Shown in pieces: positions 14,279 to 63,095 of a DNA stretch of 64,000 bases. Source of the DNA: an uncultured Anaerolineales bacterium (GTDB taxonomy: Bacteria; Chloroflexota; Anaerolineae; Anaerolineales; UBA11858); the NCBI GenBank assembly GCA_964458115.1, contig CAYWIC010000001.1, positions 11,984-75,983 on the forward strand, given 5' to 3'. Each line of letters starts with the position of its first letter. The stretch's first letter is position 1. The notes under the pieces are model-generated. The model worked only from the letters and a program-made list of their open reading frames with translations, did not search any database and was not told the origin of the DNA. A program made the translations under genes and the position numbers.

Positions 14279-14313
14279 GAGAATATGATTAAAACTATCA
14301 GATTTGATGGTTT

Positions 14314-36135: not shown

Positions 36136-36187
36136 ACGATAGAAGTTGTAAGAAACAAAGGATTGTTCTCAAGAAGTTGCCAAGATG

Positions 36188-36250: not shown

Positions 36251-36353
36251 TTCACCGAGTTTCACAATAATCATTATTAAATTGGAGTAATAAGGTACAA
36301 ATTATGATTTATAATTGGTATTATGAAATAAGTTGCACAAAGGAGGTTTTTTT

Positions 36354-37547: not shown

Positions 37548-37567
37548 AGCAAAGTGAGGTTATTATC

Positions 37568-38545
37568 ATGGTTAGTTTAGTAAAAAGAGTACTTGGCAAC
37601 CTAGCATTTGATTTTGGGCTGCTGTTATTCCTGGCGGCGATGGTTTCAATCCTTAGTTTGTTTGGCCTAAGGCGAATTCGGGCGGATTACAAGGAATTAA
37701 TCGAACATAGCTTTGAAATTGAGCGCCTGACAGCAAAGATCGAGATCGATTTGCTTAGAGCTGTTGAGCTTGAAGAACAATTTCTTTTGCAATTGGAACA
37801 TGAAGGATTTGAAGCTGCTGCCGAAAACTACCTCGTTCCTCACAAGGAGTTCACAGACAACCTGGAAGATGATATCGCCCAACTGATGGATTTAGTTAAA
37901 GATCACGAGGTATTGGGTGATGAAGAGATTGAAAAGAATCTCAAGCAAGTAATAGAGAAAGTCAACCGCTATGAGGCCAATTACGAATTATTGATCCAGG
38001 ATGTTGAGAAACGTGGCACACTTGAATCTGGTCTTGAAGGCAATTTTCGTAATCGCGCAGCCTATGTAGACAATCTCATTTCCTCTCATGGAAACCATTT
38101 TGAGATGCACTACACGCTTTGCAAAATGCGCTTTCATGAAGAAGAATATCTACTTGTCCGTGATCCAAAGTTGGCTGAAACCGTTAATCTTTGGTACCAC
38201 GATTTGGCTATCCAGGTACAAGAATCAGATCTACCACGGGCTGAGATCGCGACGATCTCATTTGAGCTGGAATTCTACGACAACGAATTTCTAGATGTCG
38301 TAGAAATTGACCAAGAAATTGATAGACTGCATTCTGAAATACGCGCATTAGTTGATGAAATTTCCTACATCGCGGAAGATATCGATCGCATTGCCCGCGA
38401 AGAAGCCGCACGCGATTTAGATGATGCAGATAAAGTGGCCCGACAAACCATTCAACTGGTTACGATGAGCGTTGTCGTAATTTTGGTATTTGGCCTCGGC
38501 TTGGCACTGGCCATGTCTTTACAGATGCGCAAGGGTGATGAATGA
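37568..38545 (+). CDS. hypothetical bitopic membrane protein with long helical (sensor-like) ectodomain
   Basis: TM helices at the N- and C-termini with a helical, Glu-rich region between them. There is no output domain. Confidence 0.45.
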   Translation: MVSLVKRVLGNLAFDFGLLLFLAAMVSILSLFGLRRIRADYKELIEHSFEIERLTAKIEIDLLRAVELEEQFLLQLEHEGFEAAAENYLVPHKEFTDNLEDDIAQLMDLVKDHEVLGDEEIEKNLKQVIEKVNRYEANYELLIQDVEKRGTLESGLEGNFRNRAAYVDNLISSHGNHFEMHYTLCKMRFHEEEYLLVRDPKLAETVNLWYHDLAIQVQESDLPRAEIATISFELEFYDNEFLDVVEIDQEIDRLHSEIRALVDEISYIAEDIDRIAREEAARDLDDADKVARQTIQLVTMSVVVILVFGLGLALAMSLQMRKGDE

Positions 38546-40166: not shown

Positions 40167-41495
40167 TTAGTCCGATGGAGCGTCATCTAGCGGGGTGCCG
40201 TCGAAACCGGGGTAGTCAGGGTAGTAGCGCTCGACGCGGAATACAGCGTTCCGATCGGGATCGGGCTCTTGGACCTGGTATTCCCAAACCTTTTCGCATG
40301 ATGGGGTCACCTCGAAGAGGTAGGAGTTCCCCCCATGGCAAGTCAGTGTGTTGCCATTGGGAAGTCGTTGAGCTCCCGAGATGGATTTTGCGTAGAAGTC
40401 GGTGGGGGGCTCTGCTGTGTAAATCCAAACTGGGTCGCTGGGACTGTATGCGGAGCCCGCATCAAGGGGATAACTGCCATCGGAGTTCACCGGCGATATG
40501 ATCTCGACGATCGAAGAGTATCTCCCTTCGGGGCGTCTCATGCCGTTGTTGAAGACCAGGATATTCCCCTCACCTGGCAGCCCAGCGCCGATCCACTCGG
40601 CATCGTGTTGGTGAAAGAGCTGCTGATCGGCGGCAGTCCCTGCATCGTATGTTTGGGGGTTGCCCCAGCGATAGAGCAGGTCACCGCCCATCCCGCTATT
40701 GCCACCTGTGTGACCAGCCGCTTCAGCAGTTGTTGTGCTGTGGTCGATGATCCAAACTTCGCTGAAGCTGTGGACACTCAGCAAAATCTGATCCAGTTCG
40801 GCGTTGTAATCAACGGCGTTGGAGTGGAACCAATCGGCGGCATTGAACCCGACATAGTTCAGGTCAATCAGCTCGGGGTGGTTGGCAACGACGCCGAAGT
40901 TATCTTTGGTGGTATCATAATCCTGAACGAGATGATCCCAGGCATACCATTCCCAGACAATATCGCCCGATTTGGGCCCGGTGGGTTGCACCTCGATGAT
41001 ACTGCCTGGCCACAACTCGCCATCGTTCAAAAGCGATGGATCGCGACCTGCGGCGAGGGCCTCAGCCTCAGTCTTGTACTGCCAGGCGATCATCAGCACG
41101 TTGCCGTTGGGCAGCATCTCGACGTCATGGTGCTGCAAGTGTGTGTTGCTGGAGTACTCGTACTCCCAAGTGACATTTCCATCCCAGTCGATCAACTGGA
41201 CGATGCCGCCAGCACCGTCCGCTCTGAAGATGCGGTTACGCGCACCGCCAGTGTAAAGTAGTTGGCCGTTTTCCAAGAAGTAAACTACATTGCCAGGTTT
41301 GTAGTTGGTTTCCCAGGAGTGGACTATGTTGCCTTCAGTGTCCACCAGGTTGACTGTCGTTGTGTGGAGTAATACGAACAGGTTGTAGCCTTCCGTGCCA
41401 GGTTCTTCCTGACCAGCGAAAGCGCTCATAAATGTCAAGGCTAAAACCAACCCCGTGATGAAAATGATGGGGATGATGCGGATGATTTCCTTCAT
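40167..41495 (-). CDS. arylsulfotransferase (ASST)-like beta-propeller protein, paralog without 4-Cys module
   Basis: The same motif set: LENGQLL, HHDVEMLPNGNVL, WYAWDHL, DWFHSNAVDYN and SEVWIIDH. The ATG at 41495 (MKEIIRIIPIIF signal) follows GGAG. Confidence 0.6.
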   Translation of the reverse strand: MKEIIRIIPIIFITGLVLALTFMSAFAGQEEPGTEGYNLFVLLHTTTVNLVDTEGNIVHSWETNYKPGNVVYFLENGQLLYTGGARNRIFRADGAGGIVQLIDWDGNVTWEYEYSSNTHLQHHDVEMLPNGNVLMIAWQYKTEAEALAAGRDPSLLNDGELWPGSIIEVQPTGPKSGDIVWEWYAWDHLVQDYDTTKDNFGVVANHPELIDLNYVGFNAADWFHSNAVDYNAELDQILLSVHSFSEVWIIDHSTTTAEAAGHTGGNSGMGGDLLYRWGNPQTYDAGTAADQQLFHQHDAEWIGAGLPGEGNILVFNNGMRRPEGRYSSIVEIISPVNSDGSYPLDAGSAYSPSDPVWIYTAEPPTDFYAKSISGAQRLPNGNTLTCHGGNSYLFEVTPSCEKVWEYQVQEPDPDRNAVFRVERYYPDYPGFDGTPLDDAPSD

Positions 41496-41506
41496 GCTGA
41501 TCTCCA

Positions 41507-41565
41507 TTCTTCCCTCACCCCCAACCCCTCTCGCTCAGCGAGAGGGGTTGGGGGTGAGGGAAGAA
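41507..41565. repeat. 59-bp near-perfect palindrome filling the intercistronic gap
   Basis: TTCTTCCCTCACCCCCAACCCCTCTCGCT-C-AGCGAGAGGGGTTGGGGGTGAGGGAAGAA, located between the stop at 41568 and the downstream start. Confidence 0.8.
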
Positions 41566-41567
41566 AT

Positions 41568-43166
41568 CTATGGTTGCCCTCCTGAGCCCGTCGAAGGGCC
41601 ACCCTCTGGAGGCGGTCCACCACCGCCAGGGCCACCTTCGGGCACACAAGCTAGCGTACTTTGGATATTTGTACAGCTACCGTCTAGGGTTCCTCGTGGA
41701 GTATTGATGGTACAGGCTGCCCCTTCACTCGAGGCTGAACAAGCATCGATGGCTTCCTGGGGGGGTGATCCCTGATCGCCCGGGCCTTGTCCCAAACCAG
41801 TTGAAGGGAGTTGGCCAGCTTGCTGCTGAGATTGACTTGCAAACTCAGAACCAGTTCCAATGTTTGGGTCCGTTTCGCCGCCGGTGAGAACTTCTCCGGT
41901 GGTGCCGCCGGTTACGCAGCGGGCATAGTTGTAGATGCGTACGGCGTCACCTTGCGGGCCATGGCCTGTTGGATAAACAGAAGGATCACCACTTTTTTGC
42001 TCAGCCCGTTGAGCCCCAGCGCCATGGACATCCATCCAGGTGCCGTTCATATAGCCCATCGAGCGACCGAAGTTGATGTATACACCCGAACGACTAAAGC
42101 CATCAGCATTGGTGTGTGTGGTGCTGCTCCAATAGGCTGGATAATCTGATTGACCAGCTTCGTTCGTGATCAGAGTGACATTGAAGATAGGATCGATGGC
42201 TGCTGAGTTGGTTGTGTCTGGTGAGCGAGAGTAATCGATGATGCTGTGCAACTCTTTGGCATTGGGGAGACGCCAATCGCTAATTCCACCATAATCCAGG
42301 CTGGAGCAGTAATTCAAAGCACCTTCCCAGTCCAGTGAATTACCGCTATCGGATTGCATCCAGGTCAGGCCGGTTGCATTGTCGGTTACCATGCCGTTGC
42401 CCTCATCGACGAATTCGTTGACTCCGTAGCTGGTGTTGTCGCGTACGTAGATTACGAAGAAAGTTTTGGCAGAGCGGCCATGCAGCGCTTCAGTCCCGTA
42501 GCCCTTGATGCGTCCATCGGCAAAGTTGACACCAAACATGGTTTCATGGCCGTTCATGGTGGTGCTGACATATCTGGTGCTGGTAGCCCACTGAGAGTCG
42601 ATGATACGATCACCGCTGGATGTGTCTCCATACTTGAAGACGAAGTAATCGGTATCGATGAAAGGAATTCCTGTGCAGGTTCCTTCTTCGACACACCGGC
42701 TGACGTCGGTGCCGCTGAAATCGATCAATGAATAAAGCTCTTTGATGGTAGGTAAGCGCCAATCGTTGTACCCACCCAAAGTCAGACTGGAAGCACCCGC
42801 AACCGCTTGGTTGTAGGTCATCTTCTCGCCAGGATCCTGCTGCCATATCAAACCTGTCACCAGGTCGGTCACTGTGCCGTCACCATTATCCTGGTAGCTT
42901 GCCTGGGTGCCGACGACCTGACCATCCTGTCCGTAGAAGGATTTGCCTTCTTCGGGGCAGGGGATGCTGGTTGAATCGCTATAGCAGTATTCCTGTCCAG
43001 TATCAACGATGGCATAACTATAGACAGATGCGTTGGCAGTGTCTTGCTCTGCAGTTGGGGCAAGTGAGTCAGCGCTAACTGAAGTCAGAGGGTAGACTGC
43101 TCCGCTGGCTGATAATATGAAAGCGATTGCGATTGCAATCATTAGGGTTTTTCTTTTCTTGTTCAT
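41568..43166 (-). CDS. secreted protein with two DUF1566 (Lcl C-terminal-like) domains and C-terminal 4-Cys module
   Basis: A signal peptide, then WRLPTIKELYSLID and WRLPNAKELHSIID motifs. The C-terminus is PPQEAIDACSASSEGAACTINTPRGTLDGSCTNIQSTLACVPEG plus a Gly/Pro tail. Confidence 0.65.
   Translation of the reverse strand: MNKKRKTLMIAIAIAFILSASGAVYPLTSVSADSLAPTAEQDTANASVYSYAIVDTGQEYCYSDSTSIPCPEEGKSFYGQDGQVVGTQASYQDNGDGTVTDLVTGLIWQQDPGEKMTYNQAVAGASSLTLGGYNDWRLPTIKELYSLIDFSGTDVSRCVEEGTCTGIPFIDTDYFVFKYGDTSSGDRIIDSQWATSTRYVSTTMNGHETMFGVNFADGRIKGYGTEALHGRSAKTFFVIYVRDNTSYGVNEFVDEGNGMVTDNATGLTWMQSDSGNSLDWEGALNYCSSLDYGGISDWRLPNAKELHSIIDYSRSPDTTNSAAIDPIFNVTLITNEAGQSDYPAYWSSTTHTNADGFSRSGVYINFGRSMGYMNGTWMDVHGAGAQRAEQKSGDPSVYPTGHGPQGDAVRIYNYARCVTGGTTGEVLTGGETDPNIGTGSEFASQSQQQAGQLPSTGLGQGPGDQGSPPQEAIDACSASSEGAACTINTPRGTLDGSCTNIQSTLACVPEGGPGGGGPPPEGGPSTGSGGQP
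41634..41765 (-). other. 4-Cys module, copy in DUF1566 protein
   Basis: PPQEAIDAC-x8-C-x12-C-x8-CVPEG. Confidence 0.6.
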
Positions 43167-43202: not shown

Positions 43203-43240
43203 ATATTAGCAAACGCATGTTCAGAAGTTGTTTAGAAGTT
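43203..43240 (-). promoter_or_regulatory. regulon promoter (b)
   Basis: The coding strand reads ACTTCTAAACA ACTTCTGAACA, then 9 bp containing TGC, then TAATAT. On the forward strand the repeats are at 43218 and 43229 and the hexamer at 43203-43208. Confidence 0.6.
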
Positions 43241-43394: not shown

Positions 43395-43955
43395 TCAATT
43401 TGGGTTACAGATTGAATGAATCAGTTGGACATGAGGCTGTTTTTGATCCCAAGCCGAAAGGGGGGGTGGGTTGAAATCTGAAATTTGATTCTTCCCTATT
43501 GCTTTGGCGGCTTGCTGGCGAAATTGGGCTGTTTCAACAGAACCCCCAATCCCTATGCTGACTTGAAAGCCGAGCTCATTGATTTGCCCAAGGATTCTCT
43601 CGGCGATATCCTTTGCCTCAGCGACCGTTGTATCATATAGCAGGACTGCAAATTCATCTCCTCCCCAATGGCTGACCAAGTCTGTTTTCCTGACATGCTG
43701 AACAACGCTAACCGCTACAGCTTTTATGGCCATATCTCCAGCATGATATCCTTGTTCCCGGTTTATTTCCTTAAGATTATCCAGATCGATAAAAAGAGCA
43801 ATAAACCCACCCTCAAGTGTTGCAATTTCAAAAGCCTCTCTCGTTGGTAATCGTGTCAGGGGATTGCGAACATAAAAAGGCTTTGAATCACGAAGTACCC
43901 AATCAGCGATCATAAAGCGTAAGCGATTGATAAGGGTGGCATGTATTCCTAGCAT
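43395..43955 (-). CDS. stand-alone GGDEF diguanylate cyclase (no sensor domain)
   Basis: RKTDLVSHWGGDEFAVLL carries an intact GGDEF motif with an RxxD I-site five residues upstream. Only about 186 aa. Confidence 0.85.
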   Translation of the reverse strand: MLGIHATLINRLRFMIADWVLRDSKPFYVRNPLTRLPTREAFEIATLEGGFIALFIDLDNLKEINREQGYHAGDMAIKAVAVSVVQHVRKTDLVSHWGGDEFAVLLYDTTVAEAKDIAERILGQINELGFQVSIGIGGSVETAQFRQQAAKAIGKNQISDFNPPPLSAWDQKQPHVQLIHSICNPN

Positions 43956-44002: not shown

Positions 44003-44040
44003 ATCGTACCAATTCGTTGTTCAGAAGCTGTTTAGGAGCA
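44003..44040 (-). promoter_or_regulatory. regulon promoter (c)
   Basis: The coding strand reads CTCCTAAACA GCTTCTGAACA, then 9 bp containing TGG, then TACGAT. On the forward strand the repeats are at 44018 and 44029 and the hexamer at 44003-44008. Confidence 0.55.
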
Positions 44041-47583: not shown

Positions 47584-49605
47584 TTACCTGAAGAGAAAAT
47601 CCGAATTGGGGATCTCCGGCATGGAAATTGGTTGTGAGTACAGGTACGCACCATCAGGATACAACATATCACCAAGCATCTCTTCTCGGAAAGCCATCAA
47701 CTGGGCTTCTTGCTCCCTGGTCAACGATGAGCCGACCTGGGCAAAGTTTTCAGCGAAATTGTAGATGATTGCGCCATCCAACTCGCCGTATTCTTCCATC
47801 CAGGCCAAGACAGCATCCATATCAGCGGATTCACCAGCCATGAACTTGCGCAGGTCGACGGCGACCAGTTGGCGTGTATCTACGATCTCCAGCAGGTAGG
47901 GTCGTTGGATGTCTACTAGGCCAGTTAAGAGCTGCGCCTGGTCTGGGGTTAGGGTATTCAACATGGCTTCCCCCATATCTCCTGTCAGGTTGGATGAGAT
48001 GGTGTAATCGGGGTTGCCCATGGCGGGAGCATCTTTGAGATAGAACGAACCAAAGTAGGTCCCTTGGCGTTCGGGGCAGAAGTACACATCTGCTTCGACC
48101 GAGCCGAGATACCAACTGAACATGTCACCGGCATAAGTCATCACAGCGACTTTGACATCCCGGTCCAGGCCGCGTATATCGGAAGGCTCCTCAACATCTG
48201 GCCAATCGAGCATCCCTACGCCAACCAGTGCCTCCAGATAGTTTTGCTGAGATTCATCCAAAGCGCTAAGCATGCCGCCCATCACCTGCGCCCTCTCGAA
48301 GCTGATCTCGCCATCCAGCCGATAGAGATCAGCTGAGTAATCCTTGACAGCTTCTTCGTCCAAGCGTGACGTTCCGGCCGGGAGATCACCATCCAGCAAG
48401 CGGCGGAAAGCGTCCATCAGGACAAAACGCATTTCAGCGTACTCATCAATGGAGTCAACTTGACCCTCGGCCAGAGTCACCAGCTCGGAGCGCTGCTCAG
48501 GGGTCAGCACATTGAGCATGTTGAAGGCGGCTTGGGTCAGGAAATCAGTGTTATGCCCCATCTCGGTGGGGTCGTTATCACGCAGGTACTGAAAACCCCA
48601 GAAATCAGCCACCTTGCCAGGAGGGAAGAAGGAATCAGCACCCAGGTCGCCGGTCAGAAAAGCCAGGGCGTCGAAGGAAATTGTCATCTCCTGTGCATGG
48701 TCTGAGATAGCCTGTTCAATATTGTATGCAGCTCCATTCTCAGCGGGCGGTCTTCCATCGCTTGGATCACGCTCGCTGGGATGTTGTGCGTCAAGAGGGC
48801 CATCAGATTGGTTTTCGGGCGGACCCTCGAACGGATCTCGTTGGGGTGAGCAGGCCAGCTGATCCTGAACAACTTCACAGACCCCTGTTTCAGGACCATT
48901 GTTGGATGTAAATTCACAGGCATCTTGTTCAATCCCTCCACTGCAGGCAGCGATGGCCTCCTGTGGGGGTGTTCCTCCAAGGGCAGCAAGTTGCCCTGGA
49001 TTAGTTTGATCATTATTGTCGCCGGGCTGCTGGAGGTCAGATGATCCACCTGTTTGGTTTTCGGGCGGACTGTCAGACGGATCGCGTTGGGGTGAGCAAG
49101 CTAGTTGTTCTTGTACCACTTCACAGACGCCTGTTTCAGTACCCTGGTTGAATGAAAATTCACAGGCATCTTGCTCAACTCCTCCATTACAGGCAGCGAT
49201 GGCTTCCTGTGGGGGTGTTCCTCCAGGAGCAGGGGGCTGTTGGCCGTTACCTGTATCCCCGCTTTCCCTTGGCGGAGGTTGCTGGCCGCTGCCAAGGTCC
49301 CGGTTTTGCGGGGGTTGTTGCCCATTCTGCGTCCCTTCATCTTCTCTGGGAGGGGGCGGCTGATTATTGTCAGAACCCTCTCTTGGCGGGGGTGGAGGCT
49401 GGCTGTTGTCTGAACCTTCTCTTAGTGGAGGTGGGGGAGCGTTATTCTGGCTGTCACTTGGAGGAGGTGATTCCTGCCCGAGTTCATCTTCGACTAATTG
49501 AATTACTGGAGCCTCATCGAGTTGATCCGCGGCAACGATGCCTGGTGTACAGACAAGTGCCAGCAAGGTTACGAGCAGAATATTGTAAATGGGTTTGGTG
49601 TTCAT
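47584..49605 (-). CDS. secreted protein: Pro-rich repeats, two tandem 4-Cys modules, ~400-aa unassigned C-terminal domain
   Basis: A signal peptide, then QPPPPPREGSDN repeats. The sequence TPPQEAIAAC..C..C..ACSPQRDP appears twice with an ~82-aa period. The C-terminal domain has no motif I recognise. Confidence 0.6.
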   Translation of the reverse strand: MNTKPIYNILLVTLLALVCTPGIVAADQLDEAPVIQLVEDELGQESPPPSDSQNNAPPPPLREGSDNSQPPPPPREGSDNNQPPPPREDEGTQNGQQPPQNRDLGSGQQPPPRESGDTGNGQQPPAPGGTPPQEAIAACNGGVEQDACEFSFNQGTETGVCEVVQEQLACSPQRDPSDSPPENQTGGSSDLQQPGDNNDQTNPGQLAALGGTPPQEAIAACSGGIEQDACEFTSNNGPETGVCEVVQDQLACSPQRDPFEGPPENQSDGPLDAQHPSERDPSDGRPPAENGAAYNIEQAISDHAQEMTISFDALAFLTGDLGADSFFPPGKVADFWGFQYLRDNDPTEMGHNTDFLTQAAFNMLNVLTPEQRSELVTLAEGQVDSIDEYAEMRFVLMDAFRRLLDGDLPAGTSRLDEEAVKDYSADLYRLDGEISFERAQVMGGMLSALDESQQNYLEALVGVGMLDWPDVEEPSDIRGLDRDVKVAVMTYAGDMFSWYLGSVEADVYFCPERQGTYFGSFYLKDAPAMGNPDYTISSNLTGDMGEAMLNTLTPDQAQLLTGLVDIQRPYLLEIVDTRQLVAVDLRKFMAGESADMDAVLAWMEEYGELDGAIIYNFAENFAQVGSSLTREQEAQLMAFREEMLGDMLYPDGAYLYSQPISMPEIPNSDFLFR
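48841..48969 (-). other. 4-Cys module, second copy in the 673-aa secreted protein
   Basis: PPQEAIAACSGGIEQDACEFTSNNGPETGVCEVVQDQLACSPQ. Confidence 0.6.
49087..49215 (-). other. 4-Cys module, first copy in the 673-aa secreted protein
   Basis: PPQEAIAACNGGVEQDACEFSFNQGTETGVCEVVQEQLACSPQ. Confidence 0.6.
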
Positions 49606-54490: not shown

Positions 54491-55222
54491 TCAGCGCAAA
54501 TTAAAGCGCCATTTCAAGTAATTGCGCTTAGCAACTTGTTCTTGCAACAAGCCCCATAGATCACGGAAGGCTTTGATAATCACCCGGATATCTGCTCCTG
54601 TAGCCTCACCACCGACGCGCGGACGATGTGTTACCGGTACTTCCTCGATTCTACATCCCAGTCGCCGGGCGCTGGAGAGAAATTCCGTATCGATTAGCGC
54701 ACCATCCGAAGTGATATTCACACATTTGAGTACGTCACGCCGAAATAGCTTGAACCCGCAATCGATATCCCGGCACAAATAGCCAAAAAGAATGCGAATG
54801 AGAGTATTCCAGCCAAAAGCGTTGAATTTACGTAGGAAAGGGTCGCGCCGGGGCGCACGGTAGCCACAAACGATATCAGCGTTTGCAGCTTCCTGGTGTT
54901 CAAGTAGGCGTGTGATTTCCTCAAAATGGAATTGGTTGTCGGCGGGGAAGAAAGCAATCAGGTCTTTTCGAGCGGCAGCAAACCCCGCTTTGAGCGCCCC
55001 CCCATAACCACGGTTAGGGTAGTGCTCTACCAGGCGGAATTCAGGGATATAAGCGGCCAGTTCACGCCCAATCTCGCCTGTGTGGTCGCGGCTGCCGTCG
55101 TTGACCAGGATGATCTCATGATCGAGGCCAAGGTTTTGTGCCACACCGGCTACTTCGGCGACTGTTGTGCGTACATTGGCTTCTTCGTTATATGCGGGTA
55201 AGACGATGGATAAACTTTTCAT
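54491..55222 (-). CDS. GT2 polyprenyl-phosphate glycosyltransferase (ArnC/GtrB/DPM1-like)
   Basis: LSIVLPAYNEEANV start, DGSRD motif, and an ED-containing acceptor loop. Confidence 0.85.
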   Translation of the reverse strand: MKSLSIVLPAYNEEANVRTTVAEVAGVAQNLGLDHEIILVNDGSRDHTGEIGRELAAYIPEFRLVEHYPNRGYGGALKAGFAAARKDLIAFFPADNQFHFEEITRLLEHQEAANADIVCGYRAPRRDPFLRKFNAFGWNTLIRILFGYLCRDIDCGFKLFRRDVLKCVNITSDGALIDTEFLSSARRLGCRIEEVPVTHRPRVGGEATGADIRVIIKAFRDLWGLLQEQVAKRNYLKWRFNLR

Positions 55223-55263: not shown

Positions 55264-55653
55264 CTACCGAAAAACTACCATTTTGTTCAAGATAAAATTC
55301 CAGCCAAAGGCGGCGCCGGTTGCCAGTACAAGGGAGATGACTTCACTAAGATTAAACGTCTCTAGACCGAGATACATGACACCGGCATTGATTCCCAGGG
55401 CGGCGATGTGGGTCAACGTGAACAAGAAAGCCGCCTTCCAGGTTGGGACACGGTATGCCGTATCCTTGCTCTTGAACGTCCAGTTGCGGTTCCAATAAAA
55501 ACTGTTGGTCATGCCAACAGCGTAGGCAATCCCTTTGGCCAGTACGGGCAGGGGCTCCAGCCACAGCCAGCGAGTTAGTACATAGTAGGTCGCTGCGTCG
55601 ATGAGGGTGTTGGATACGCCCACAGCCGCATATTTGATGACCTGTGAAATCAT
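55264..55653 (-). CDS. GtrA-family membrane protein
   Basis: MISQVIKYAAVGVSNTLIDAATYYVL start, four TM helices, and FGWNFILNKMVVF at the end. An alternative upstream start is at 55716. Confidence 0.7.
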   Translation of the reverse strand: MISQVIKYAAVGVSNTLIDAATYYVLTRWLWLEPLPVLAKGIAYAVGMTNSFYWNRNWTFKSKDTAYRVPTWKAAFLFTLTHIAALGINAGVMYLGLETFNLSEVISLVLATGAAFGWNFILNKMVVFR

Positions 55654-55699: not shown

Positions 55700-58072
55700 T
55701 TAGCTTCCGCAGTCATAGAGCACCTCTTCGGTTTGCCCGCCGGGGCTACCTGGGCCGCCTTGAATTTGGGGCATCGTAATCACGCCCGGCACATCGACCA
55801 CGCTACAGCTATTTCTCATCCATTGGGCGATCTCCTGCTTTTGCTGTGGGATGCCGAGGATGTAGCGCAGATCGCCGTTATCAATCATCTCAATCAACTC
55901 TCCCAGACTGATCACATCATCTCTGCCGCCGAAGCCGCCAAAGGTCAGCACTGCCCGATCCGATTCCAAGAGGTAGGGCGCCGCACCGCGGGCGTTGAGC
56001 GTAGCTAGTAGATAATCGTCAGGATCGGTGTTGGCCAGTGTGTAAACCAGGATGGCTTGCCCATTTGCGCTCAACGTAGTCACATCTGGGGTCATGAAGG
56101 TTGAGCGGGTGCGGTCGGATGCTGAAATGCCTGCGGTGGGGAGCCCCACGTTGGGATTGGGATTCAGCGTGGTCAAAGCAGACCAGGTGAGCGGGGCAAC
56201 CAGCATAGCGATTAGCACCAAGGAGAATCCGATTTTGTGGGCCGGGATCAGTTTACTCAATGCGAGGATGCCGATTCCAGCCAGCCAGATTAAGATGGAT
56301 ATCGCCGTAACCCAGCCTGCGTACTCCGGATAGTTTTGAATGATGTAGATCTCGAAGATGATCGTCAGCCCGGTAATGAAGGCCGTGACCAGCCAACCGA
56401 GGGTGGGGTTCTGTTTCCAGTGTTTGGCGACGCTCCAGAGGCTGATCCCAACTAAGGCCGCTAGTGGGGGTCCAATCATAATCAGGTAGTAGCGATGGAA
56501 CAGGCCGGTAGTGAAACTGAAATAAGCCATGGAGGGCAGCAGCCAGCCAGCCCAGAGCAGCAGGCTGTTGTGCTTACCATTCAGCGGCCATGACCAGCCT
56601 GTGGCGACCAACGCAACGGGCAGTCCCAACAATACCAGTGGCAGCAACCAGCTGGCCTCAGTGACCAGGGGCTCTTCGAACAGGCGCAGCACACCCGCTG
56701 TTCCAGTCTCTCCGCCGTTCATGTTACCCCGTCCTGAGCCTGTCGAAGGGCCACGTCCACCAACCTGCCCGCCGTCGATACCTTGGCCGCCAGGAGGGCC
56801 ATCGGGGAATTGTCCGTCAGGACCGTCTGGGAATTGACCAGGAACGTTGGCGGTTGATGACGTCGGTGGCGGCTGGCGCCCTTCCGGTACACAAACCAGG
56901 TCTCCACTCTGATTGTCATAACAAGTGCCATCGATGGTGTTGCCATTTCGTAAATTGACCGTGCAGTCTTCGCCAGTTCTCAAATCAGTACAGGCCTCCA
57001 GAGCTTCGGGTGGTGGTTGGCGATTAATTCCTTGGGGCTGATTCCCATCGAGAACGGAATTCTGCCCAGGAGGGCCCAACCCACCCTGAGGTCGCGTCGT
57101 TTTTCCATCTGGAGGGCTATCGCTAAATTGTGGGGCCTGGCCTGAATTTATGGAGGAGCCATCGGCTCCAACCCGGAGGCCTTGCCCTGAGTTTATCGAA
57201 GGGCCATCGGCGCCGCCTGGGCCACCAAGGCTCATATTTAAACGCTTCAGCCCGTTATGGCCGACGATTAACTCCATAACGGTGTTGTCTTCGCTGCTGC
57301 CAATATAGGGGCGCTCGTCCACAGGGGTCAAGTCTACTACCACCACCCAGGCCAAGGAGACAACCAACAGAACAATTGTCGCCACCCCAAGCTGGAGGAT
57401 GCGTTTCCACCAGGCATTGCGAGCGCCCAATAAATAGACGGCATAGAATGCGGGCAAAACCATATAGGCTTGCAGCATCTTGATATTGAAGCCCAGCCCA
57501 ACCAGTACCGCACCTAGCAACAGATGCCGGGTTTTCCCTGACTCAGCAGCCTTGAGAAACGCCCAGGCTGCCAGCAACGACACGAAAACCAGTAGGCCGT
57601 CGATGGTGTTGTTGCGCTCAGTGGCGATGGTCACGGGGACTAGTGCTAACACCAGAGCAGAAATCAACCCAGCCCAGATACCGAAATATTTGCGAACTAA
57701 ATGGTAGAGCACCGGGATGGAGAGCGTTCCGGCCAAGGCCTGTGGCAGCGCCAGAGCGAAGCCATTGATACCCAGGAAATAGGCCGAAACCGCTTGCACC
57801 CAGAATCCCAAGGGGGGTTTGTCGACGGTTACGGAGCCGCCCGGCTCGAAGGAGGCGTAGAAGAAATTGTGCCAGGAAGTCAGCATCGATTTGACCGTGG
57901 CAGCATAGTACGTGTTGCCGATAGTGTAAGTTCCCAATTGGTAAAAGCGCAAAAAGGCACCCAGTGCAACGATCGCCAACAGCCCAATACCGCCGATGAT
58001 CTTTTGGCGGCTGAGGTTTAGTGTCCGCGTCTGGGATGTGTTTGTTGGTAGGGTTTGCGTTTCTGTGGTCAT
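55700..58072 (-). CDS. GT-C fold glycosyltransferase (family 39, ArnT/PMT-like) with 4-Cys module inserted in its Gly-rich extracytoplasmic loop
   Basis: N-terminal PMT_2-like TM bundle (DKPPLGFW, ERNNTIDGL), then YIGSSEDNTVMELIVGHNGLKRL, an insert of about 190 aa of G/P/Q-rich sequence holding the module, then more TM helices. The ATG at 58072 follows GAGGA. Confidence 0.8.
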   Translation of the reverse strand: MTTETQTLPTNTSQTRTLNLSRQKIIGGIGLLAIVALGAFLRFYQLGTYTIGNTYYAATVKSMLTSWHNFFYASFEPGGSVTVDKPPLGFWVQAVSAYFLGINGFALALPQALAGTLSIPVLYHLVRKYFGIWAGLISALVLALVPVTIATERNNTIDGLLVFVSLLAAWAFLKAAESGKTRHLLLGAVLVGLGFNIKMLQAYMVLPAFYAVYLLGARNAWWKRILQLGVATIVLLVVSLAWVVVVDLTPVDERPYIGSSEDNTVMELIVGHNGLKRLNMSLGGPGGADGPSINSGQGLRVGADGSSINSGQAPQFSDSPPDGKTTRPQGGLGPPGQNSVLDGNQPQGINRQPPPEALEACTDLRTGEDCTVNLRNGNTIDGTCYDNQSGDLVCVPEGRQPPPTSSTANVPGQFPDGPDGQFPDGPPGGQGIDGGQVGGRGPSTGSGRGNMNGGETGTAGVLRLFEEPLVTEASWLLPLVLLGLPVALVATGWSWPLNGKHNSLLLWAGWLLPSMAYFSFTTGLFHRYYLIMIGPPLAALVGISLWSVAKHWKQNPTLGWLVTAFITGLTIIFEIYIIQNYPEYAGWVTAISILIWLAGIGILALSKLIPAHKIGFSLVLIAMLVAPLTWSALTTLNPNPNVGLPTAGISASDRTRSTFMTPDVTTLSANGQAILVYTLANTDPDDYLLATLNARGAAPYLLESDRAVLTFGGFGGRDDVISLGELIEMIDNGDLRYILGIPQQKQEIAQWMRNSCSVVDVPGVITMPQIQGGPGSPGGQTEEVLYDCGS
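56879..57016 (-). other. 4-Cys module, copy inside the GT-C enzyme
   Basis: PPPEALEACTDLRTGEDCTVNLRNGNTIDGTCYDNQSGDLVCVPEG. Confidence 0.6.
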
Positions 58073-58214
58073 GACTTTGTCCTCGAGTATTTTCATCGCG
58101 AGAAGCCTGCAGTAGGCGTGGCGACGAAGAGATCTGCTACTAATAGTGGGAGACTGCTTCGCCAAGCTGAACTTTGCTCAGCCGCTCGCAGTGACATTAT
58201 TCTTGAGTGTCCAA

Positions 58215-58252
58215 AGCTTAGCAAAGAGATGTTCAGAAGTTGTTTAGAAGTG
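58215..58252 (-). promoter_or_regulatory. regulon promoter (d)
   Basis: The coding strand reads ACTTCTAAACA ACTTCTGAACA, then 9 bp containing TGC, then TAAGCT. On the forward strand the repeats are at 58230 and 58241 and the hexamer at 58215-58220. Confidence 0.6.
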
Positions 58253-58380
58253 GTATGAATTGTGTAAAGGGTTGCTGGTGAGAAGAAATAGTAAAAAATG
58301 GGTGTGTGCAGGCGCAAAGCGCTGCACACACCCATTTTTTACACAAATTCCCCCTGAAAACCGGTTTCTGAAATAACTTA

Positions 58381-58411
58381 GGCCCTAAAGGTATCTGATA
58401 CCTTTAGAGCC
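58381..58411 (-). terminator. hairpin after the 684-aa secreted protein gene (CCCTAAAGG family, imperfect)
   Basis: GGCCCTAAAGGTATC-T-GATACCTTTAGAGCC. Confidence 0.45.
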
Positions 58412-58426
58412 TTCTTTCAACATTGA

Positions 58427-60478
58427 TTATCCCTCTGCCTCGTACTCATCGACTAACTCGATGCTCTCGTCGATTGAACCATCGCTGGCATAGTCGATAT
58501 CGATGAACAAGCTGCTGCCGGGGCCTTCCCACTCACTAAATAGGAAATAGCTGGTGTCGCCAGGTTCCATAAAAATATCATCGTTGCTGAACCAGGACTC
58601 ACCTGCATCATCAATGCGGTACATGACGATCTCGTAGACGCCGTATTCGGTGGTGTTATCCGTATTGACGCTCAGGGCGCCATATTCGAGATCTAGCTCG
58701 ATCACGAACTCAGCGCCTGATTCAATGTCCAGGGCAGCCACGATGAACTCGTAGTCCGCTTCGGGAGTCTCGACGCCGAAGATCATATCTGGAGCATCGT
58801 TATACTCGGTGCTGTATGCCAGCATCGTGCCATCCGATGAAACTGTGATCGTATCTGACGTACCGGGATCCAGATACAGGTCAGCAACTACCAGGTTGTA
58901 GCCAGGGCCGATCATGGCTACATCGGAAGTGATGCCTTCCGTAGAGCGGCTGGCATCCACGGTGATGCTGAATTCAATACCTACTGGAATTTTGTAGACT
59001 GGCTCGTTGTTGATATCCCAGATATCCACACCGAACTTGAAATTTTCACCGCTGGCACCTTCGATTTCGTTGATGAACTCGCCATCAAAGAAGCCGATGC
59101 GTTTTCCGTCTTCGGTGACGATCTGCAAATCCGCCTGACCCGTGAGCCAGACTTGATTGAAATCTTGATTTTCAGCAGGGGCTGCTAGACCGCGCCCGTT
59201 GTTCATCCCCGTTGAGCCGCCGCTGGCACAAAAATCGCACTCTTGCTGCTGCAATCGTGCAGAAATGCCGACAACCTCCAACGTGTGGGTATCCGCATTG
59301 CCTTCGTACAGGGACTCAGGTGCATTAGGGTTGGTGGCAGCCTGATATTTCCAGGTGTTCGCATTGTAGTCAACTTCTACAACTCGTTCTTCATTGGGCC
59401 AGTTGTTGTCATATACCATGATGTGATAAATGCCGCCTCCTTGATCAACAACTGCATAAGGCGTGATCGCATGACCACCGCTGAAATCAGGCATGTATAT
59501 ACCCATGACCCATTCTTCTTGGGGGGCTGGGTATGATGTGAAGGTTTCGATCAAAACATCTACAACTGCTGCAGGGGTTTCGTTAACTTTCACTGCGGCC
59601 GCCGGCCAGGTAGCCTGAGTAGTGAACCACATGGCGATCTCTCGTTGCAAAGCCTCGTCATTGATGGAAAGGTCATACGCGCTGCTGCCGCCGAAATTGC
59701 CGGGGTCAATGTGGTTGCTGTACATCAGCATGCTGAGCACAGCCATGCCTTCACAATGACCACCAGCCATGTAGCCGTTGATCTGTTCCATCCATTGTTT
59801 TGCAGGAGGGGTGAGTACACATTCTCCGCCTGCCATGCTTGCACAGACCTGGTCACCGAACAAGCGCTGCATTTCAACCGCTGTCAGGTTTGCGACTTGT
59901 ATATTGTCGCCATAGTTTTCAAAGCTAAAGCCATGGGAGTCAGGGCGGAAACCAGAATCGGCACCCCCAGTGGGTGCGGAAGTACTGCTCGAACTGCTTG
60001 AATTCGAATCAGCCTCCGAACTTGAACCTGCACCCGCAGATGATGCACCCCCACCAGAAGACTGTGCTTCAGTCTCATCGACTTCACCTAAATATTCCAC
60101 TTCTTCGCCGACCCACCATACAACTGGAACCTGGCCCAAAATGACCTCGGGGGCCTCAGCCACGATGGTGTACTCGTCACAGTCCGTGGCAATCAGCGTG
60201 AAAGTGCCTTCCAGACCCGTTTCAAGCCAAAAATCATCGCCTGGCCCGATCTCTTCTTCGGCAAAGATATGCTCTTGCGTTACTTCGGTGGCCCCTTGCG
60301 GAACTGCCCCAAACAGACACAAGGTCATATTGGTTTCATTGACGATCTCAACATAGGGATCTTCCTCTTGCAGTGCGGGGAATTGGCCTCCTGCGAATGC
60401 AGAGATGGCCAGGGAAGCCAGAATCAACAACGTAAAGGCTCCCAAACGCCTGGATCTAGCAACAAACTTTGATTTCAC
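58427..60478 (-). CDS. secreted protein with possible papain-fold (C39/BtrH-like) cysteine-peptidase core
   Basis: A GTG at 60478 follows AAAGGAG and is followed by signal peptide RRLGAFTLLILASLAISAFA and a Ser-rich linker. GGHCEGMAVLS (candidate Cys) and GGHAITPYAVVD...VYDNNWP (candidate His/Asn) occur in papain-like order. Confidence 0.4.
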   Translation of the reverse strand: MKSKFVARSRRLGAFTLLILASLAISAFAGGQFPALQEEDPYVEIVNETNMTLCLFGAVPQGATEVTQEHIFAEEEIGPGDDFWLETGLEGTFTLIATDCDEYTIVAEAPEVILGQVPVVWWVGEEVEYLGEVDETEAQSSGGGASSAGAGSSSEADSNSSSSSSTSAPTGGADSGFRPDSHGFSFENYGDNIQVANLTAVEMQRLFGDQVCASMAGGECVLTPPAKQWMEQINGYMAGGHCEGMAVLSMLMYSNHIDPGNFGGSSAYDLSINDEALQREIAMWFTTQATWPAAAVKVNETPAAVVDVLIETFTSYPAPQEEWVMGIYMPDFSGGHAITPYAVVDQGGGIYHIMVYDNNWPNEERVVEVDYNANTWKYQAATNPNAPESLYEGNADTHTLEVVGISARLQQQECDFCASGGSTGMNNGRGLAAPAENQDFNQVWLTGQADLQIVTEDGKRIGFFDGEFINEIEGASGENFKFGVDIWDINNEPVYKIPVGIEFSITVDASRSTEGITSDVAMIGPGYNLVVADLYLDPGTSDTITVSSDGTMLAYSTEYNDAPDMIFGVETPEADYEFIVAALDIESGAEFVIELDLEYGALSVNTDNTTEYGVYEIVMYRIDDAGESWFSNDDIFMEPGDTSYFLFSEWEGPGSSLFIDIDYASDGSIDESIELVDEYEAEG

Positions 60479-60528
60479 TGTGCACACTCCTTTGGGGATT
60501 AAAACGACAGAAAGGATATACTGGACCA

Positions 60529-60568
60529 TTTATGTCCAATATTATATGCGTTTTTATGTTTATGTCCA
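60529..60568 (-). promoter_or_regulatory. two TGGACATAAA direct repeats bracketing a TATAAT box
   Basis: Forward-strand TTTATGTCCA at 60529-60538 and 60559-60568. ATTATA (TATAAT on the coding strand) lies at 60541-60546. Confidence 0.35.
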
Positions 60569-60656
60569 GATTAAGGAATAATCAAATTGGGAAATTTTGT
60601 TTATTTAATCGGTAACCTAGATAGACGGCCTTCTGAATCCGTATACTCTTTGCCCC

Positions 60657-61565
60657 CTATTGACTAAGGATACTCGCCAGCACTCGAAGTACGACTGAAA
60701 TTGCGATGATGCATACCGATAAAGCTGCGAGTGTAGTGAATCCCACCATTGCAGCCAGTATCGTTATCGATTTGCGATCTAAGTGGCTTTCTTGTAAGAT
60801 CGGGATCGCCACAGTAATCTCTTGTGGATTTGGCGCGTGCTTGAGCGTTTGCAGCAGGGTAAGCATCTCATCAATCCAAGTTTCGACATTTTGTTGGTTG
60901 ATCTCATTTATGCGCACGCGGCGGATGATCAACTTCAATGCCTCGGGTTGGATAAAAATCTGGCGTAACTCTTGAACCCCACTAACGCGCATCAACGTCC
61001 GGATCGCTTTCCGTCCCGGATCGTCTGCCAGGATTTTGTTCATCCAGTTAGCATCCAGCGCATAGATGCTGAGATGATGGAACAGGGGATCGTTGAGCAC
61101 CAAGCTTTCGTACTCTGTCAGCTCCGCGGAAATTCGTCCCAGCTCACTTTTGAAGACTACTACGGCGCGCGTGTTCAGTGGTGCAGCAATTTGGATTTCT
61201 AGTGTTGGCCCACGCCGGAAATAGATCTTCACCTGATGATGGTTTATCTCGCCGTGATACTGGCGTCCATTTTGCAGGTAAGCAGAACCCTCTAACCCCC
61301 AGGGTTCGAATATGGCATCAAGATGTGCCGCACGTTTACGGATGCCAGAAACACCCCAAATTACAGTTCCGGCAATCCCTGCCAGGATGCCAAGAATCAA
61401 GATCCCCATGAAGATCCCAAAATTGGTATCGCGATCTCCACCCCACAGCGAAATTGCCAACGCGGGGATGAGGAAAAGGCTGAATGCCGCGGCCATGACT
61501 ATGATTTGAAAGGCCAGGCTGCGCCCACAGCCTTCTCCCCAGGTTTTTAACAGTCTCTTTTCCAC
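60657..61565 (-). CDS. hypothetical membrane protein
   Basis: Two N-terminal and one C-terminal TM helices. The start abuts the stop of the upstream M1 peptidase gene. Confidence 0.5.
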   Translation of the reverse strand: MEKRLLKTWGEGCGRSLAFQIIVMAAAFSLFLIPALAISLWGGDRDTNFGIFMGILILGILAGIAGTVIWGVSGIRKRAAHLDAIFEPWGLEGSAYLQNGRQYHGEINHHQVKIYFRRGPTLEIQIAAPLNTRAVVVFKSELGRISAELTEYESLVLNDPLFHHLSIYALDANWMNKILADDPGRKAIRTLMRVSGVQELRQIFIQPEALKLIIRRVRINEINQQNVETWIDEMLTLLQTLKHAPNPQEITVAIPILQESHLDRKSITILAAMVGFTTLAALSVCIIAISVVLRVLASILSQ

Positions 61566-63095
61566 TTATCTCTGAAAATATGTCGTTAGCAACGGAGTCC
61601 AATCCGCATCGGTGTGGCTGGCCAAAATCCTGAAGAAATCGTTTCCGGTGGCAATCTCATTGGCATACGTGGAGGCGTAATCTTGCAAGAAAGCAAAAAA
61701 GGCCTCATTACCAATTAGATTACGGAGGTCATTAAGGAAAATTGCGCCTTGCAGATAGACGGCATCACGGTAGTCTCGGTAGCCTGATGAACTGTAGATG
61801 GTGTGATTAACCCATCCAGAGGGTTGGTAGGGATTCACACGCCGGCCCCACCAGAAATCATCTAACCTGTCGGGATAGTAATATTCGTAGAATAAGTATT
61901 CACTGTATGTGGCCAAAGCTTCGTCCAGCCAGGGTTCCTGGGCCTGGTCGTTAGCGACAACGCCATACCACCACTGGTGAGAAGTTTCGTGTGCAGCAAT
62001 GGCGATCAAGAAGCTCCCAGCGGTTCCATCGTACGAAGAGAAGAACCCCCGGTTGAGGAAATAAAGACTCTGATATTCCATGCCGTGATCGAAATCTGCT
62101 TCCACCATGGTCAGCATAGGATGAGGGTACGGTCCGTAGAGTTCTGAATAGAGTTCGAAGGCATTTACCGTGGCATAGAATGCCTCTTCTCCAGCCTCGA
62201 CATCTGGGTGGAAAACGTAGCCTCGAATTGTGGTCCCATTGACCTGTTCTTCGAAGACGGAATAGTATTGGCTAACTGACCAAACAAAATTGCGACCATT
62301 CTCAATCTGGTATTTATGGGTTTCCCCCTCTCCAGTATCAGGCGCGCCGGCTGCGATGGTCACTGCCTGGGGCAGGTTCTTGAGCGTGATGGTGACATCG
62401 AAATTGGCCACCGGATAGACCAGAAATTCCCCGTAGGCCCACGGGTCTCGAATGATCCAGCCCTGGCCATCGCGATAAGGCGGCACGAAGGGATACCAAT
62501 CAACTAGATTGATCTGGCGGCTGGTATATCCAAAGGGCGTCGGCCCAGCTTGCGATGAGGAATTATTTGGGGGTAGCCAAAGATCATAGTAGATAAACAT
62601 GTTCATGGTCATGCCTGGGTCGAGCGGTTCAGTCAAGGGGATATATAATTGAGAACCCCGCATGTCGTGATCTGTTATCTCCTGGCCATCTTCCCAGGTT
62701 ATGCTCGTTAGGTGGAATGCGTCCTGGTATAGGTTTGGAGGAACAATGAGCATGATCTCATTGAAGGGTGTAGAAGAATTGTTGGGGATGCTGATAAACT
62801 GGGCCACCGTCAGTTTGAGATTTGTATAATCTAATTCAGTGGAGAATACATACTGGAGTTCCGGCGGCGGAGGCGTTGTGGGGGTGGGGCTGTTGGTGGG
62901 GGTTTCCGTGGGAATTGCCGTGGCTGTTGAGGTGGCAGTGCTCTGGACCGCAGCCACGACTTCCGGCGTAGGGCTGAAAACCCGGGTTTGCGTGGCAACG
63001 ATGGGGGTAATTGTCGGTTCCGCCTGAGGTGAACTACAGGCTGTCAGTGTAATTATTGCGAGCGTAATTGCGGTGAAGATGTGCAGGTATTTCAT
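61566..63095 (-). CDS. M1-family (aminopeptidase N-like) zinc metallopeptidase lipoprotein
   Basis: Lipobox ITLTAC, HETSHQWW (HExxH) and WLDEALATY (third zinc ligand). Confidence 0.85.
   Translation of the reverse strand: MKYLHIFTAITLAIITLTACSSPQAEPTITPIVATQTRVFSPTPEVVAAVQSTATSTATAIPTETPTNSPTPTTPPPPELQYVFSTELDYTNLKLTVAQFISIPNNSSTPFNEIMLIVPPNLYQDAFHLTSITWEDGQEITDHDMRGSQLYIPLTEPLDPGMTMNMFIYYDLWLPPNNSSSQAGPTPFGYTSRQINLVDWYPFVPPYRDGQGWIIRDPWAYGEFLVYPVANFDVTITLKNLPQAVTIAAGAPDTGEGETHKYQIENGRNFVWSVSQYYSVFEEQVNGTTIRGYVFHPDVEAGEEAFYATVNAFELYSELYGPYPHPMLTMVEADFDHGMEYQSLYFLNRGFFSSYDGTAGSFLIAIAAHETSHQWWYGVVANDQAQEPWLDEALATYSEYLFYEYYYPDRLDDFWWGRRVNPYQPSGWVNHTIYSSSGYRDYRDAVYLQGAIFLNDLRNLIGNEAFFAFLQDYASTYANEIATGNDFFRILASHTDADWTPLLTTYFQR

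Follow-up and report, generated by a model that had tools for sequence, protein, structure and literature searches.

A predicted two-component-regulated glycosylation operon of an uncultured Anaerolineales bacterium, with a four-cysteine module in its transferase loop and on secreted proteins

The glycosylation trio and its GT-C enzyme

We describe a set of three minus-strand genes from an uncultured Anaerolineales bacterium which by their composition are a polyprenyl-phosphate-sugar glycosylation trio, together with a four-cysteine module that lies in an extended loop of its GT-C glycosyltransferase and recurs on secreted proteins encoded in the same region. The genes lie in a 64,000-nucleotide (nt) stretch of contig CAYWIC010000001.1, hereafter the window, from whose start all window coordinates are counted. 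An earlier note on this DNA, made from its letters, had placed the three genes exactly where we find them, and the Pfam families agree with that assignment:

54491-55222, minus strand: GT2 glycosyltransferase (PF00535, 108 bits; 243 amino acids, aa)
55264-55653, minus strand: GtrA-family small membrane protein (PF04138, 97.6 bits against a cut-off of 26.1; 129 aa)
55700-58072, minus strand: YkcB-like GT-C glycosyltransferase (PMT_2 and YkcB_C; 790 aa; 13 predicted transmembrane (TM) helices)

As a trio these genes are ordinary. Two sets of relatives were used for comparison, the first being the 120 nearest database homologues of the GT-C enzyme, which are metagenome-derived and, wherever an organism is named, come from Chloroflexota/Anaerolineae, and the second 80 species-representative genome loci with a related GT-C gene, all from Chloroflexota, 77 of which could be scored for the module. 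An alignment of 73 GT-C sequences served for both conservation and the AlphaFold2 model.

The 790-aa GT-C product, which starts at the ATG at 58072, is preferred over a longer open reading frame (ORF) beginning with TTG because that ATG is served by a GAGGA Shine-Dalgarno sequence and the closest homologue has 793 aa. It matches PF13231 (PMT_2) over aa 84-242 along the full length of the profile (116.2 bits, cut-off 26.1). PF24878 (YkcB_C), a domain present in nearly all of the 120 nearest homologues, is matched over aa 677-753 (57.1 bits, cut-off 27). PF02366 (PMT) is not among the Pfam matches at E <= 0.01 and there are no MIR domains; the sole other match is a sub-threshold TMEM260-like one (E 0.005, 17 bits against 24). 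In NCBIfam there are weak matches to Agl23, ArnT and STT3, all far under cut-off, and the enzyme fails the ArnT equivalog NF009784 with 27.2 bits against 567. The AlphaFold2 model (mean local confidence, pLDDT, 77.5; pTM 0.78) comprises 13 TM helices followed by a soluble C-terminal domain, and in a Foldseek comparison with the PDB it ranks ArnT (5ezm) first, with an E-value of 3.9e-6, a TM-score of 0.58 on target length and approximately 13% identity, followed by STT3 and AglB. ArnT and STT3 align over the full length; Pmt1, Pmt2 and Pmt4 align over approximately 260-275 N-terminal columns only (TMq 0.23-0.24), and no full-length match to them that includes the luminal MIR-type domain was found by Foldseek. 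A profile search of PDB sequences aligns GT-C residues 82-247 to ArnT residues 87-257, and the catalytic-loop residues D84-K85-P86-P87 and D158, invariant in the 73 homologues, fall on the EKPP and NTLD motifs of ArnT. On the grounds of family, modelled fold and the alignment of these invariant residues to ArnT, we assign the enzyme as a YkcB-like, ArnT-fold GT-C. Databases name its close homologues 'glycosyltransferase family 39 protein', 'hypothetical protein' or similar, and the earlier note had likewise called it GT39-type. Identity as a GT39 protein mannosyltransferase is ruled out by the absence of PF02366 and MIR, the ArnT-type fold, with ArnT as best solved relative, and the restriction of the PMT match to the N-terminal part.

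On the donor side, the GT2 product matches ArnC (9hwj, E 1e-18), the DPMS of P. furiosus (5mlz, residues 25-247, E 4e-14) and GtrB (sll0501, E 5e-8) among PDB sequences, and its NCBIfam matches to ArnC, AglJ, Dol-P-hexose transferase and PpgS are all under their cut-offs (ArnC, 83 against 529). No C-terminal TM anchor was found in the same chain, the translation having no hydrophobic C-terminus, and the chain stops where the catalytic domains of ArnC and DPMS stop. The GtrA protein covers profile positions 1-117 of the 117 of PF04138 and, at E 0.028, weakly matches residues 253-371 of P. furiosus DPMS, the TM domain of that protein. As DPMS of P. furiosus is a single chain of 374 aa whose catalytic and TM domains are covered by GT2 and GtrA together, this pair of genes suggests a DPMS split in two, with GtrA as the membrane subunit. 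GtrA may accordingly be the membrane partner of GT2 besides, or in place of, the flippase role for which it is a candidate. In the 80 related loci the GT-C gene is adjoined by GtrA in 29 and by GT2 in 12.

A four-cysteine module in the extended loop

Within the GT-C gene, YIGSSEDNTVMELIVGHNGLKRL at 57239-57307 (minus strand) is followed by 182 aa before GVLRLF, and the features of this loop are as follows:

56696-57238, minus strand: expansion of the predicted extracytoplasmic TM7-TM8 loop, aa 279-459, with two disordered linkers flanking a four-cysteine (four-Cys) module
57182-57214 and 57137-57169, minus strand: two GADG[PS]SINSGQ repeats of the N-terminal linker, 78% identical in DNA, 45-nt spacing
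56885-57013, minus strand: GT-C copy of the module, aa 354-396, PPPEALEAC-x8-C-x14-C-x9-CVP, modelled as one helix and three strands
56819-56839 and 56795-56815, minus strand: two GQFPDGP repeats of the C-terminal linker, 81% identical in DNA, 24-nt spacing
56732-56752, minus strand: GPSTGSG

The earlier description of an expanded G/P/Q-rich loop of about 190 aa, holding both kinds of repeat and one four-Cys module, is thus confirmed in each of its parts. The 182-aa stretch contains G 41, P 23, S, D and Q 14 each, N 13 and T 12; the linkers in the loop are G/P/Q/N/D-rich, unlike the Ser/Thr/Pro-rich sort to be expected for O-mannosylation. Tandem Repeats Finder reported nothing in the insert, the repeats being too short and too diverged.

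The insert is predicted to face outward. The model has seven helices ahead of the loop (15-43, 87-100, 104-130, 132-153, 158-178, 181-216 and 221-247) and six after it, and this count, together with a short, positively charged N-terminus and the register of the ArnT alignment, places the loop after TM7 on the outer side, as the earlier note had expected. An outward loop also agrees with the occurrence of the four-Cys domain in three proteins with signal sequences and with two invariant cysteines of the GT-C C-terminal domain (C756 and C788 in the 73 homologues). We take the loop to be the equivalent of the flexible periplasmic loop 4 of ArnT. In the full model, aa 281-350 and 402-453 have pLDDT values under 50, while aa 351-400 fold confidently. 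The loop ends are invariant in the 73 homologues (R254-P, G258-S-S, G271-H-N-G and R277-L278 on one side; E455, G457, G460 and R463 on the other), and would form part of the catalytic machinery, with the middle of the loop being a disordered excursion common to the family.

Indeed, the loop proves to be a family feature. Both flanking motifs could be located in 113 of the 120 nearest homologues, and in all 113 a G/P/Q-rich low-complexity loop of 58-192 aa occupies this place, with approximately 50 holding the four-Cys module and one holding two copies. Every examined relative in which the loop could be delimited has a low-complexity loop, 58-380 aa in length. An insertion peculiar to this genome is therefore ruled out, and the large insert of the earlier note is large in degree only. 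At least one module is present in 62 of the 77 scorable GT-C genes, all from Anaerolineae genomes, down to 38% identity, and absent in 15; four loci of Anaerolineales (L053, L068, L077 and L078) have two modules in the same loop, and a fifth (L079, 452-3022) has four in a loop of 380 aa. In a neighbour-joining tree built from the enzyme core only, module-less lineages are interspersed among module-bearing clades, which implies that the module was lost or gained repeatedly, and copy number rose independently in several lineages. Along the branch to the window the loop lengthens stepwise from 140 to approximately 185 aa by way of linker repeats. The refuting condition set by the earlier note gives a mixed result: all close orthologues retain the insert, but there are module-less orthologues at 44-54% identity that keep GtrA and two-component neighbours. 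Because these module-less orthologues still adjoin GtrA and two-component genes, the sequence comparison marks the four-Cys module as an accessory of the glycosylation system.

The module is a domain in its own right. In addition to the copy in the GT-C loop, a search with the module identified four more in the window, bringing the total to five:

41640-41762, minus strand: C-terminal module of the Lcl_C/DUF1566 protein (module search and alignment)
38593-38697, minus strand: C-terminal module of the arylsulfotransferase-like protein 38578-40110 (module search)
48850-49212, minus strand: two modules of the secreted 673-aa protein 47584-49605, in its Pro-rich N-terminal part (module search)

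Between the insert and the DUF1566 protein the significant match is the module, with 47% identity over 43 aa (E 5e-7). The earlier note had linked the two proteins through GPSTGSG; the motif does recur at 41580-41600, where the Lcl_C/DUF1566 tail ends, but it is not significant alone in BLASTP and is rejected as the link, the true similarity being the module. No motif related to GPSTGSG occurs elsewhere in the window, and related GPS[IT][NG]SGQ motifs reappear in the loops of orthologues, though not at fixed positions.

The module block has a pLDDT of 81-95 in the full GT-C model and of 88 when folded alone. Its consensus is PPQEAIDAC-x8-C(S/T)(F/V)-x9-G(T/S)C-x8-(L)(A/V)C-x-P, with spacings of x8, x13-14 and x8-9 between cysteines and no CxxC knuckles; Cys1 and Cys3 are conserved in 100% of representatives and Cys2 and Cys4 in 96%, and judging from the model they are presumably disulfide-bonded. 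Ser or Thr stands directly after Cys2 in 74-89% and directly before Cys3 in 66-68%, and no Ser/Thr column that could serve as a glycosylation site is invariant in the module. It has no match in Pfam or NCBIfam, its best Foldseek match in the PDB has an E-value of 0.43, and a literature search with the motif string returned no papers. A word-indexed search with the module profile gave 14 small proteins only, hence an exhaustive hidden Markov model search of 1.84 billion representative proteins was carried out, which yielded 3444 proteins at E <= 1e-3 and 1126 at E <= 1e-10. Some of these proteins string 3-11 copies together in tandem, and one has 32 matches. A DUF1566 protein bears four copies at its C-terminus, and another protein has several at its N-terminus and a C-terminal half that, by eye, may be a subtilase-type protease. 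Microbulbifer and metagenomes provide stand-alone forms, approximately 80 aa long and with signal peptides. For the top-ranking module proteins no names are on record. The module is a real and widespread domain without prior description in Pfam, NCBIfam or the PDB. In Microbulbifer (L003-L006, 5001-5255) a stand-alone 84-aa signal-peptide module protein adjoins a YHYH protein and lies near an azurin-like copper protein and DUF411.

Near the GT-C gene the distribution of the module is narrow. In a census of 10,049 ORFs of at least 60 aa, taken from the 10 kb on either side of the 80 GT-C genes and from the window, it occurs only in GT-C (72), Lcl_C (7), arylsulfotransferase-like proteins (4) and the 673-aa type (3). 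At one locus (L022) the Lcl_C protein (14042-15727) and the arylsulfotransferase-like protein (16646-18319) end instead in a Cys-free helical repeat, DFxxAAAQLGVTEEALxxALGxPPP, apparently a second shared C-terminal tag that is interchangeable with the module. Strict co-variation of the module between GT-C and the Lcl_C/arylsulfotransferase-like proteins was considered and rejected, as seven loci agree, L036 agrees negatively and L022 disagrees, in a sample too small.

Operator, probable regulon and neighbouring genes

The module-bearing Lcl_C unit and the GT-C trio are preceded by the same operator-like sequence, which also occurs before two further units of the window:

58229-58248, minus strand: operator TCTAAACAACTTCTGAACAT, upstream of the GT-C trio, direct hexamers TAAACA-N5-TGAACA
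58224-58196, minus strand: promoter-like TTGCTA-17-AATAAT directly downstream of the GT-C operator (promoter scan)
43217-43236, minus strand: identical operator, upstream of the Lcl_C/DUF1566 gene (alignment)
44017-44036, minus strand: operator variant with 3 mismatches, upstream of the GGDEF gene 43395-43955 (alignment)
36102-36130, minus strand: operator 36102-36121 and a third in-phase hexamer to 36130, upstream of the N_BRCA1_IG unit (scan)
41568-43166, minus strand: Lcl_C/DUF1566 gene (PF07603, E 1e-44)
40167-41507 and 38578-40110, minus strand: two arylsulfotransferase-like genes after Lcl_C, same unit
34591-36048, 33708-34448 and 32148-33656, minus strand: N_BRCA1_IG gene, then OmpR-type response regulator, then HisKA kinase, an operator-led unit

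Four such sites are found in the window where 0.01 would be expected, each just upstream of a -35-like TTGCTA or TGTGCTA. Direct hexamers in such phase are typical of sites of the OmpR/PhoB family, and the window has the hallmarks of an OmpR/PhoB-type regulon in that hexamers at an 11-bp phase lie beside the -35 of several units and a response regulator/histidine kinase pair of the OmpR family is encoded. From these signals the response regulator probably drives the operon via the operator. Relatives retain the pattern. The strict form of the operator occurs 23 times in 1.27 Mb of related loci, 18 of them directly upstream of a GT-C gene, down to 43% identity; a site equivalent to the GGDEF operator is present in L001, and in a relative with a 70%-identical GT-C the operator stands ahead of the GT-C, GGDEF and Lcl_C genes. 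In that relative an M1 peptidase, GT-C, GtrA, GT2, a 673-aa-type gene, N_BRCA1_IG, GGDEF, Lcl_C, response regulator and kinase are contiguous, indicating that the arrangement in the window is the same set spread apart by insertions. More generally, GT-C is adjoined by the response regulator/kinase pair in at least 15 loci and by Lcl_C or the arylsulfotransferase-like gene in at least 9. Regulation, synteny in relatives and a shared domain, all read from sequence, support a tie between the Lcl_C/DUF1566 protein and GT-C. The region 36001-38000 has a GC content of 0.42, against approximately 0.50-0.55 elsewhere in the window; within it an MscS-like gene on the plus strand (36333-37547) and a gene without assignment (37568-38545) separate two minus-strand units that bear the operator, and the region may be an insertion.

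Upstream of the GT-C trio lie two hairpins and three further genes:

58291-58342, minus strand: perfect hairpin flanked by A6 and T6 runs, putative intrinsic terminator (minimum free energy -65.6 kcal/mol, z -8.0)
58380-58412: second strong hairpin, back to back with the first, between the 700-aa gene and the GT-C promoter
58427-60529, minus strand: 700-aa protein without Pfam family, with a Ser-rich linker
60657-61565, minus strand: 302-aa membrane protein without family
61566-63095, minus strand: M1-peptidase-like lipoprotein with a Thr/Pro-rich linker

Taken as sequence signals, these hairpins and the promoter-like site show that the GT-C trio has its own promoter, and co-transcription with the upstream 700-aa gene is ruled out by the two strong hairpins and the want of an operator there. 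With its A6 and T6 flanks, the hairpin at 58291-58342 may terminate transcription in both directions. The three upstream genes (58427-63095) are without operator, yet they are syntenic partners of GT-C in close relatives. The shared promoter and co-regulated neighbours of the earlier note therefore stand in part: the operator leads four transcription units, the DUF1566 unit among them, and is conserved in relatives, but the immediate upstream neighbours, behind their two hairpins, do not have it. The secreted 673-aa protein (47584-49605, minus strand) combines PPPPRE-type Pro-rich repeats with its two modules and has no operator in the window, and its C-terminal region of approximately 380 aa belongs to no family, with sub-threshold LTXXQ/CpxP-like matches only. 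Its orthologues adjoin the GT-C trio in three relatives (L007, L012 and L022), on which account it appears to be part of the same gene set.

A model for the operon and its relation to known systems

We propose a model, to which we assign a probability of about 0.62, in which the genes form a two-component-regulated, multi-component transmembrane glycosylation operon with the module as an accessory binding or tethering tag. By homology, the soluble GT2, probably with the GtrA-like protein in a split-DPMS-like arrangement, would load one sugar onto polyprenyl phosphate at the cytoplasmic face of the membrane. The lipid-linked sugar would then be flipped by GtrA or by another protein, and the 13-TM YkcB-like GT-C would pass it to an acceptor outside the membrane. 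The OmpR-type response regulator probably switches the operon on by binding TAAACA-N5-TGAACA. The module may keep both the loop of the transferase and the co-regulated exoproteins attached to one envelope structure, possibly the glycosylated polymer itself.

The nature of the acceptor is the point at which readings of this operon diverge most. PMT_2 enzymes of this kind belong to what have been termed 'multi-component transmembrane glycosylation systems', with lipoteichoic acid, wall teichoic acid and wall polysaccharides as acceptors, YkcB/YkcC being listed as of unknown function, including the acceptor of YkcB (PMC8035078); loss of ykcB has been linked to envelope phenotypes that depend on ykcC (preprint 10.1101/2022.08.30.505962). 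We favour a polymer or other envelope component as the acceptor, and the module as a tag shared by the enzyme loop and the exoproteins, because the characterised PMT_2 systems act on polymers, because the module is variable in copy number, swappable and dispensable, and because the linkers are not rich in Ser/Thr. The module behaves as a tag would in being C-terminal after Pro-rich linkers, in varying from 0 to 4 copies in GT-C, and in its replacement at L022.

Several observations weigh against this model. Adjacency of GtrA and GT2 to the GT-C gene is limited to the window's own clade, and at L022 the GT-C keeps its module though its Lcl_C and arylsulfotransferase-like proteins have swapped theirs, which does not suit a strict one-to-one partnership. 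The stand-alone modules of proteobacteria lie beside copper-related genes, where a metal or redox function fits as well as binding. No sequence test applied here names the sugar, the acceptor or the ligand of the module, and it is from adjacency and repeat geometry that we infer the pairing of regulator and operator. To our knowledge, the envelope polymers of Chloroflexota are poorly known.

The alternative that survives best, though we regard it as unlikely, is a domain-directed O-glycosylation of proteins, a narrower version of the earlier note's proposal, in which the module or its adjoining linkers would be modified on the Lcl_C, arylsulfotransferase-like and 673-aa exoproteins and the copy in the GT-C loop would be a cis-substrate or pseudo-substrate. 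In its fullest form, which is more doubtful, the module would be the recognition unit of a bacterial domain-specific protein glycosylation and the GT-C would carry its own substrate domain in its catalytic loop and act on exoproteins under one and the same two-component control, in parallel to the eukaryotic TMEM260, TMTC and POFUT enzymes that act on folded small domains. Such a reading would account for the confinement of the module near GT-C to that enzyme and three secreted families, for the operator common to the module-bearing units and for the frequent Ser/Thr after Cys2 and before Cys3; the weak, sub-threshold TMEM260-like match of GT-C (E 0.005) also counts in its favour, TMEM260 and TMTC being eukaryotic GT-C enzymes that mannosylate folded small domains. 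It is opposed by the lack of any invariant Ser/Thr column, by linkers that are G/P/Q/N/D-rich, by the absence of PF02366 with a PMT match over the N-terminal part only, and by the polymer acceptors of the characterised PMT_2 members of such systems (PMC8035078). Furthermore, several lineages with GT-C, GtrA and the response regulator/kinase pair have lost the module, and at L022 it is the presumed substrates, Lcl_C and the arylsulfotransferase-like protein, that are without it and the enzyme that retains it.

Less likely than protein glycosylation are two further readings. In one, which we consider improbable, the content of the loop is neutral, a tolerant loop having gained a common mobile module and slippage repeats by linker recombination. 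The high variability of the loop in length (58-380 aa) and sequence, the 15 of 77 loci without a module, the short repeats that differ among close relatives, the stepwise lengthening from 140 to 185 aa in the lineage that leads to the window and the GPSTGSG-type linker motifs common to other proteins are all consistent with this; however, neutral drift is disfavoured because the module, with conserved non-Cys positions, is kept at a fixed site down to 38% GT-C identity. It is far better conserved than the linkers and always in the same loop, its copy number rose independently in several lineages, and its occurrence is confined to a single set of functionally linked genes. The other, more improbable still, takes the module as a metal- or redox-active unit (a thiol copper/zinc site or a disulfide relay) coupling enzyme or exoproteins to the redox or metal state of the envelope, which the two-component system would sense, and the near-invariance of the four Cys, the stand-alone homologue of Microbulbifer with its azurin-like copper protein, YHYH and DUF411 neighbours, and the weak CpxP/LTXXQ-like matches of the 673-aa protein are outweighed by a Cys spacing without the CxxC knuckles typical of metal sites, a compact helix-plus-sheet model that fits two disulfides, context from one genus, and CpxP-like matches that are below threshold and outside the module.

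The proposed operon is of a known kind, and what is new is the loop-embedded module, its sharing with co-regulated exoproteins and a regulon that can be read. Nor is the arrangement specific to the window, as close relatives are already in public databases. A widespread extracytoplasmic four-Cys domain without a Pfam, NCBIfam or PDB entry, in arrays of up to 32 copies and in stand-alone secreted forms, is here found both in the predicted outward loop of a lipid-linked-sugar transferase and on secreted enzymes that share its operator, which provides a handle on the acceptors of YkcB-type GT-C enzymes. In an uncultured member of the Anaerolineae, whose envelope biology is barely known, a conserved, putative two-component regulon with its operator, regulator and targets is readable from sequence. 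Were the module to prove the acceptor itself, or else an anchor to the polymer that is glycosylated, this would be a new envelope-targeting mechanism in Chloroflexota; were protein glycosylation to prove domain-specific, it would be the first function for a module family of more than 3000 representative proteins.

Among known systems, ArnT (5ezm/5f15) and ArnC, which serve the modification of lipid A with aminoarabinose, are the best solved relatives of the window's GT-C and GT2, respectively. PmrA control of arn, with an OmpR-family regulator acting on hexamer direct repeats in an 11-bp phase, follows the same logic as the operator described here. The likeness is limited by the approximately 13% identity to ArnT, by NCBIfam scores far under the cut-offs and by the absence of other arn genes, and ArnT itself has neither YkcB_C nor a domain embedded in its loop. 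With the GT39 protein mannosyltransferases (fungal Pmt1/2/4 and actinobacterial Pmt) and with TMEM260/TMTC, the window's enzyme has in common the GT-C fold, a presumed polyprenyl-phosphate donor and an N-terminal superposition of approximately 260-275 columns, but it has no PF02366 match and no MIR domain, and its C-terminal half differs.

The three-component systems of Gram-positive bacteria (B. subtilis YkcC/YkcB and CsbB/GtcA/YfhO; Listeria GtlA/GtcA/GtlB) have the same three parts (PMC8035078), and the window's GT-C also has YkcB_C, the domain by which the YkcB subgroup is defined. In contrast to these systems, the GT2 of the window has no membrane anchor and together with GtrA resembles a split DPMS, the TM7-TM8 loop of its GT-C is long, disordered and occupied by a four-Cys domain, and its operon is associated both with an OmpR-type operator and with secreted Lcl_C/arylsulfotransferase-like proteins, in a host of the Chloroflexota. 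Finally, the module may be compared to shared C-terminal anchoring or sorting tags such as SLH, CWB2, dockerin and the C-terminal domain of type IX secretion (T9SS), to none of which it has sequence or fold similarity. Like them it is C-terminal on unrelated secreted enzymes and tandem elsewhere; unlike them it also lies inside the catalytic loop of a membrane enzyme.

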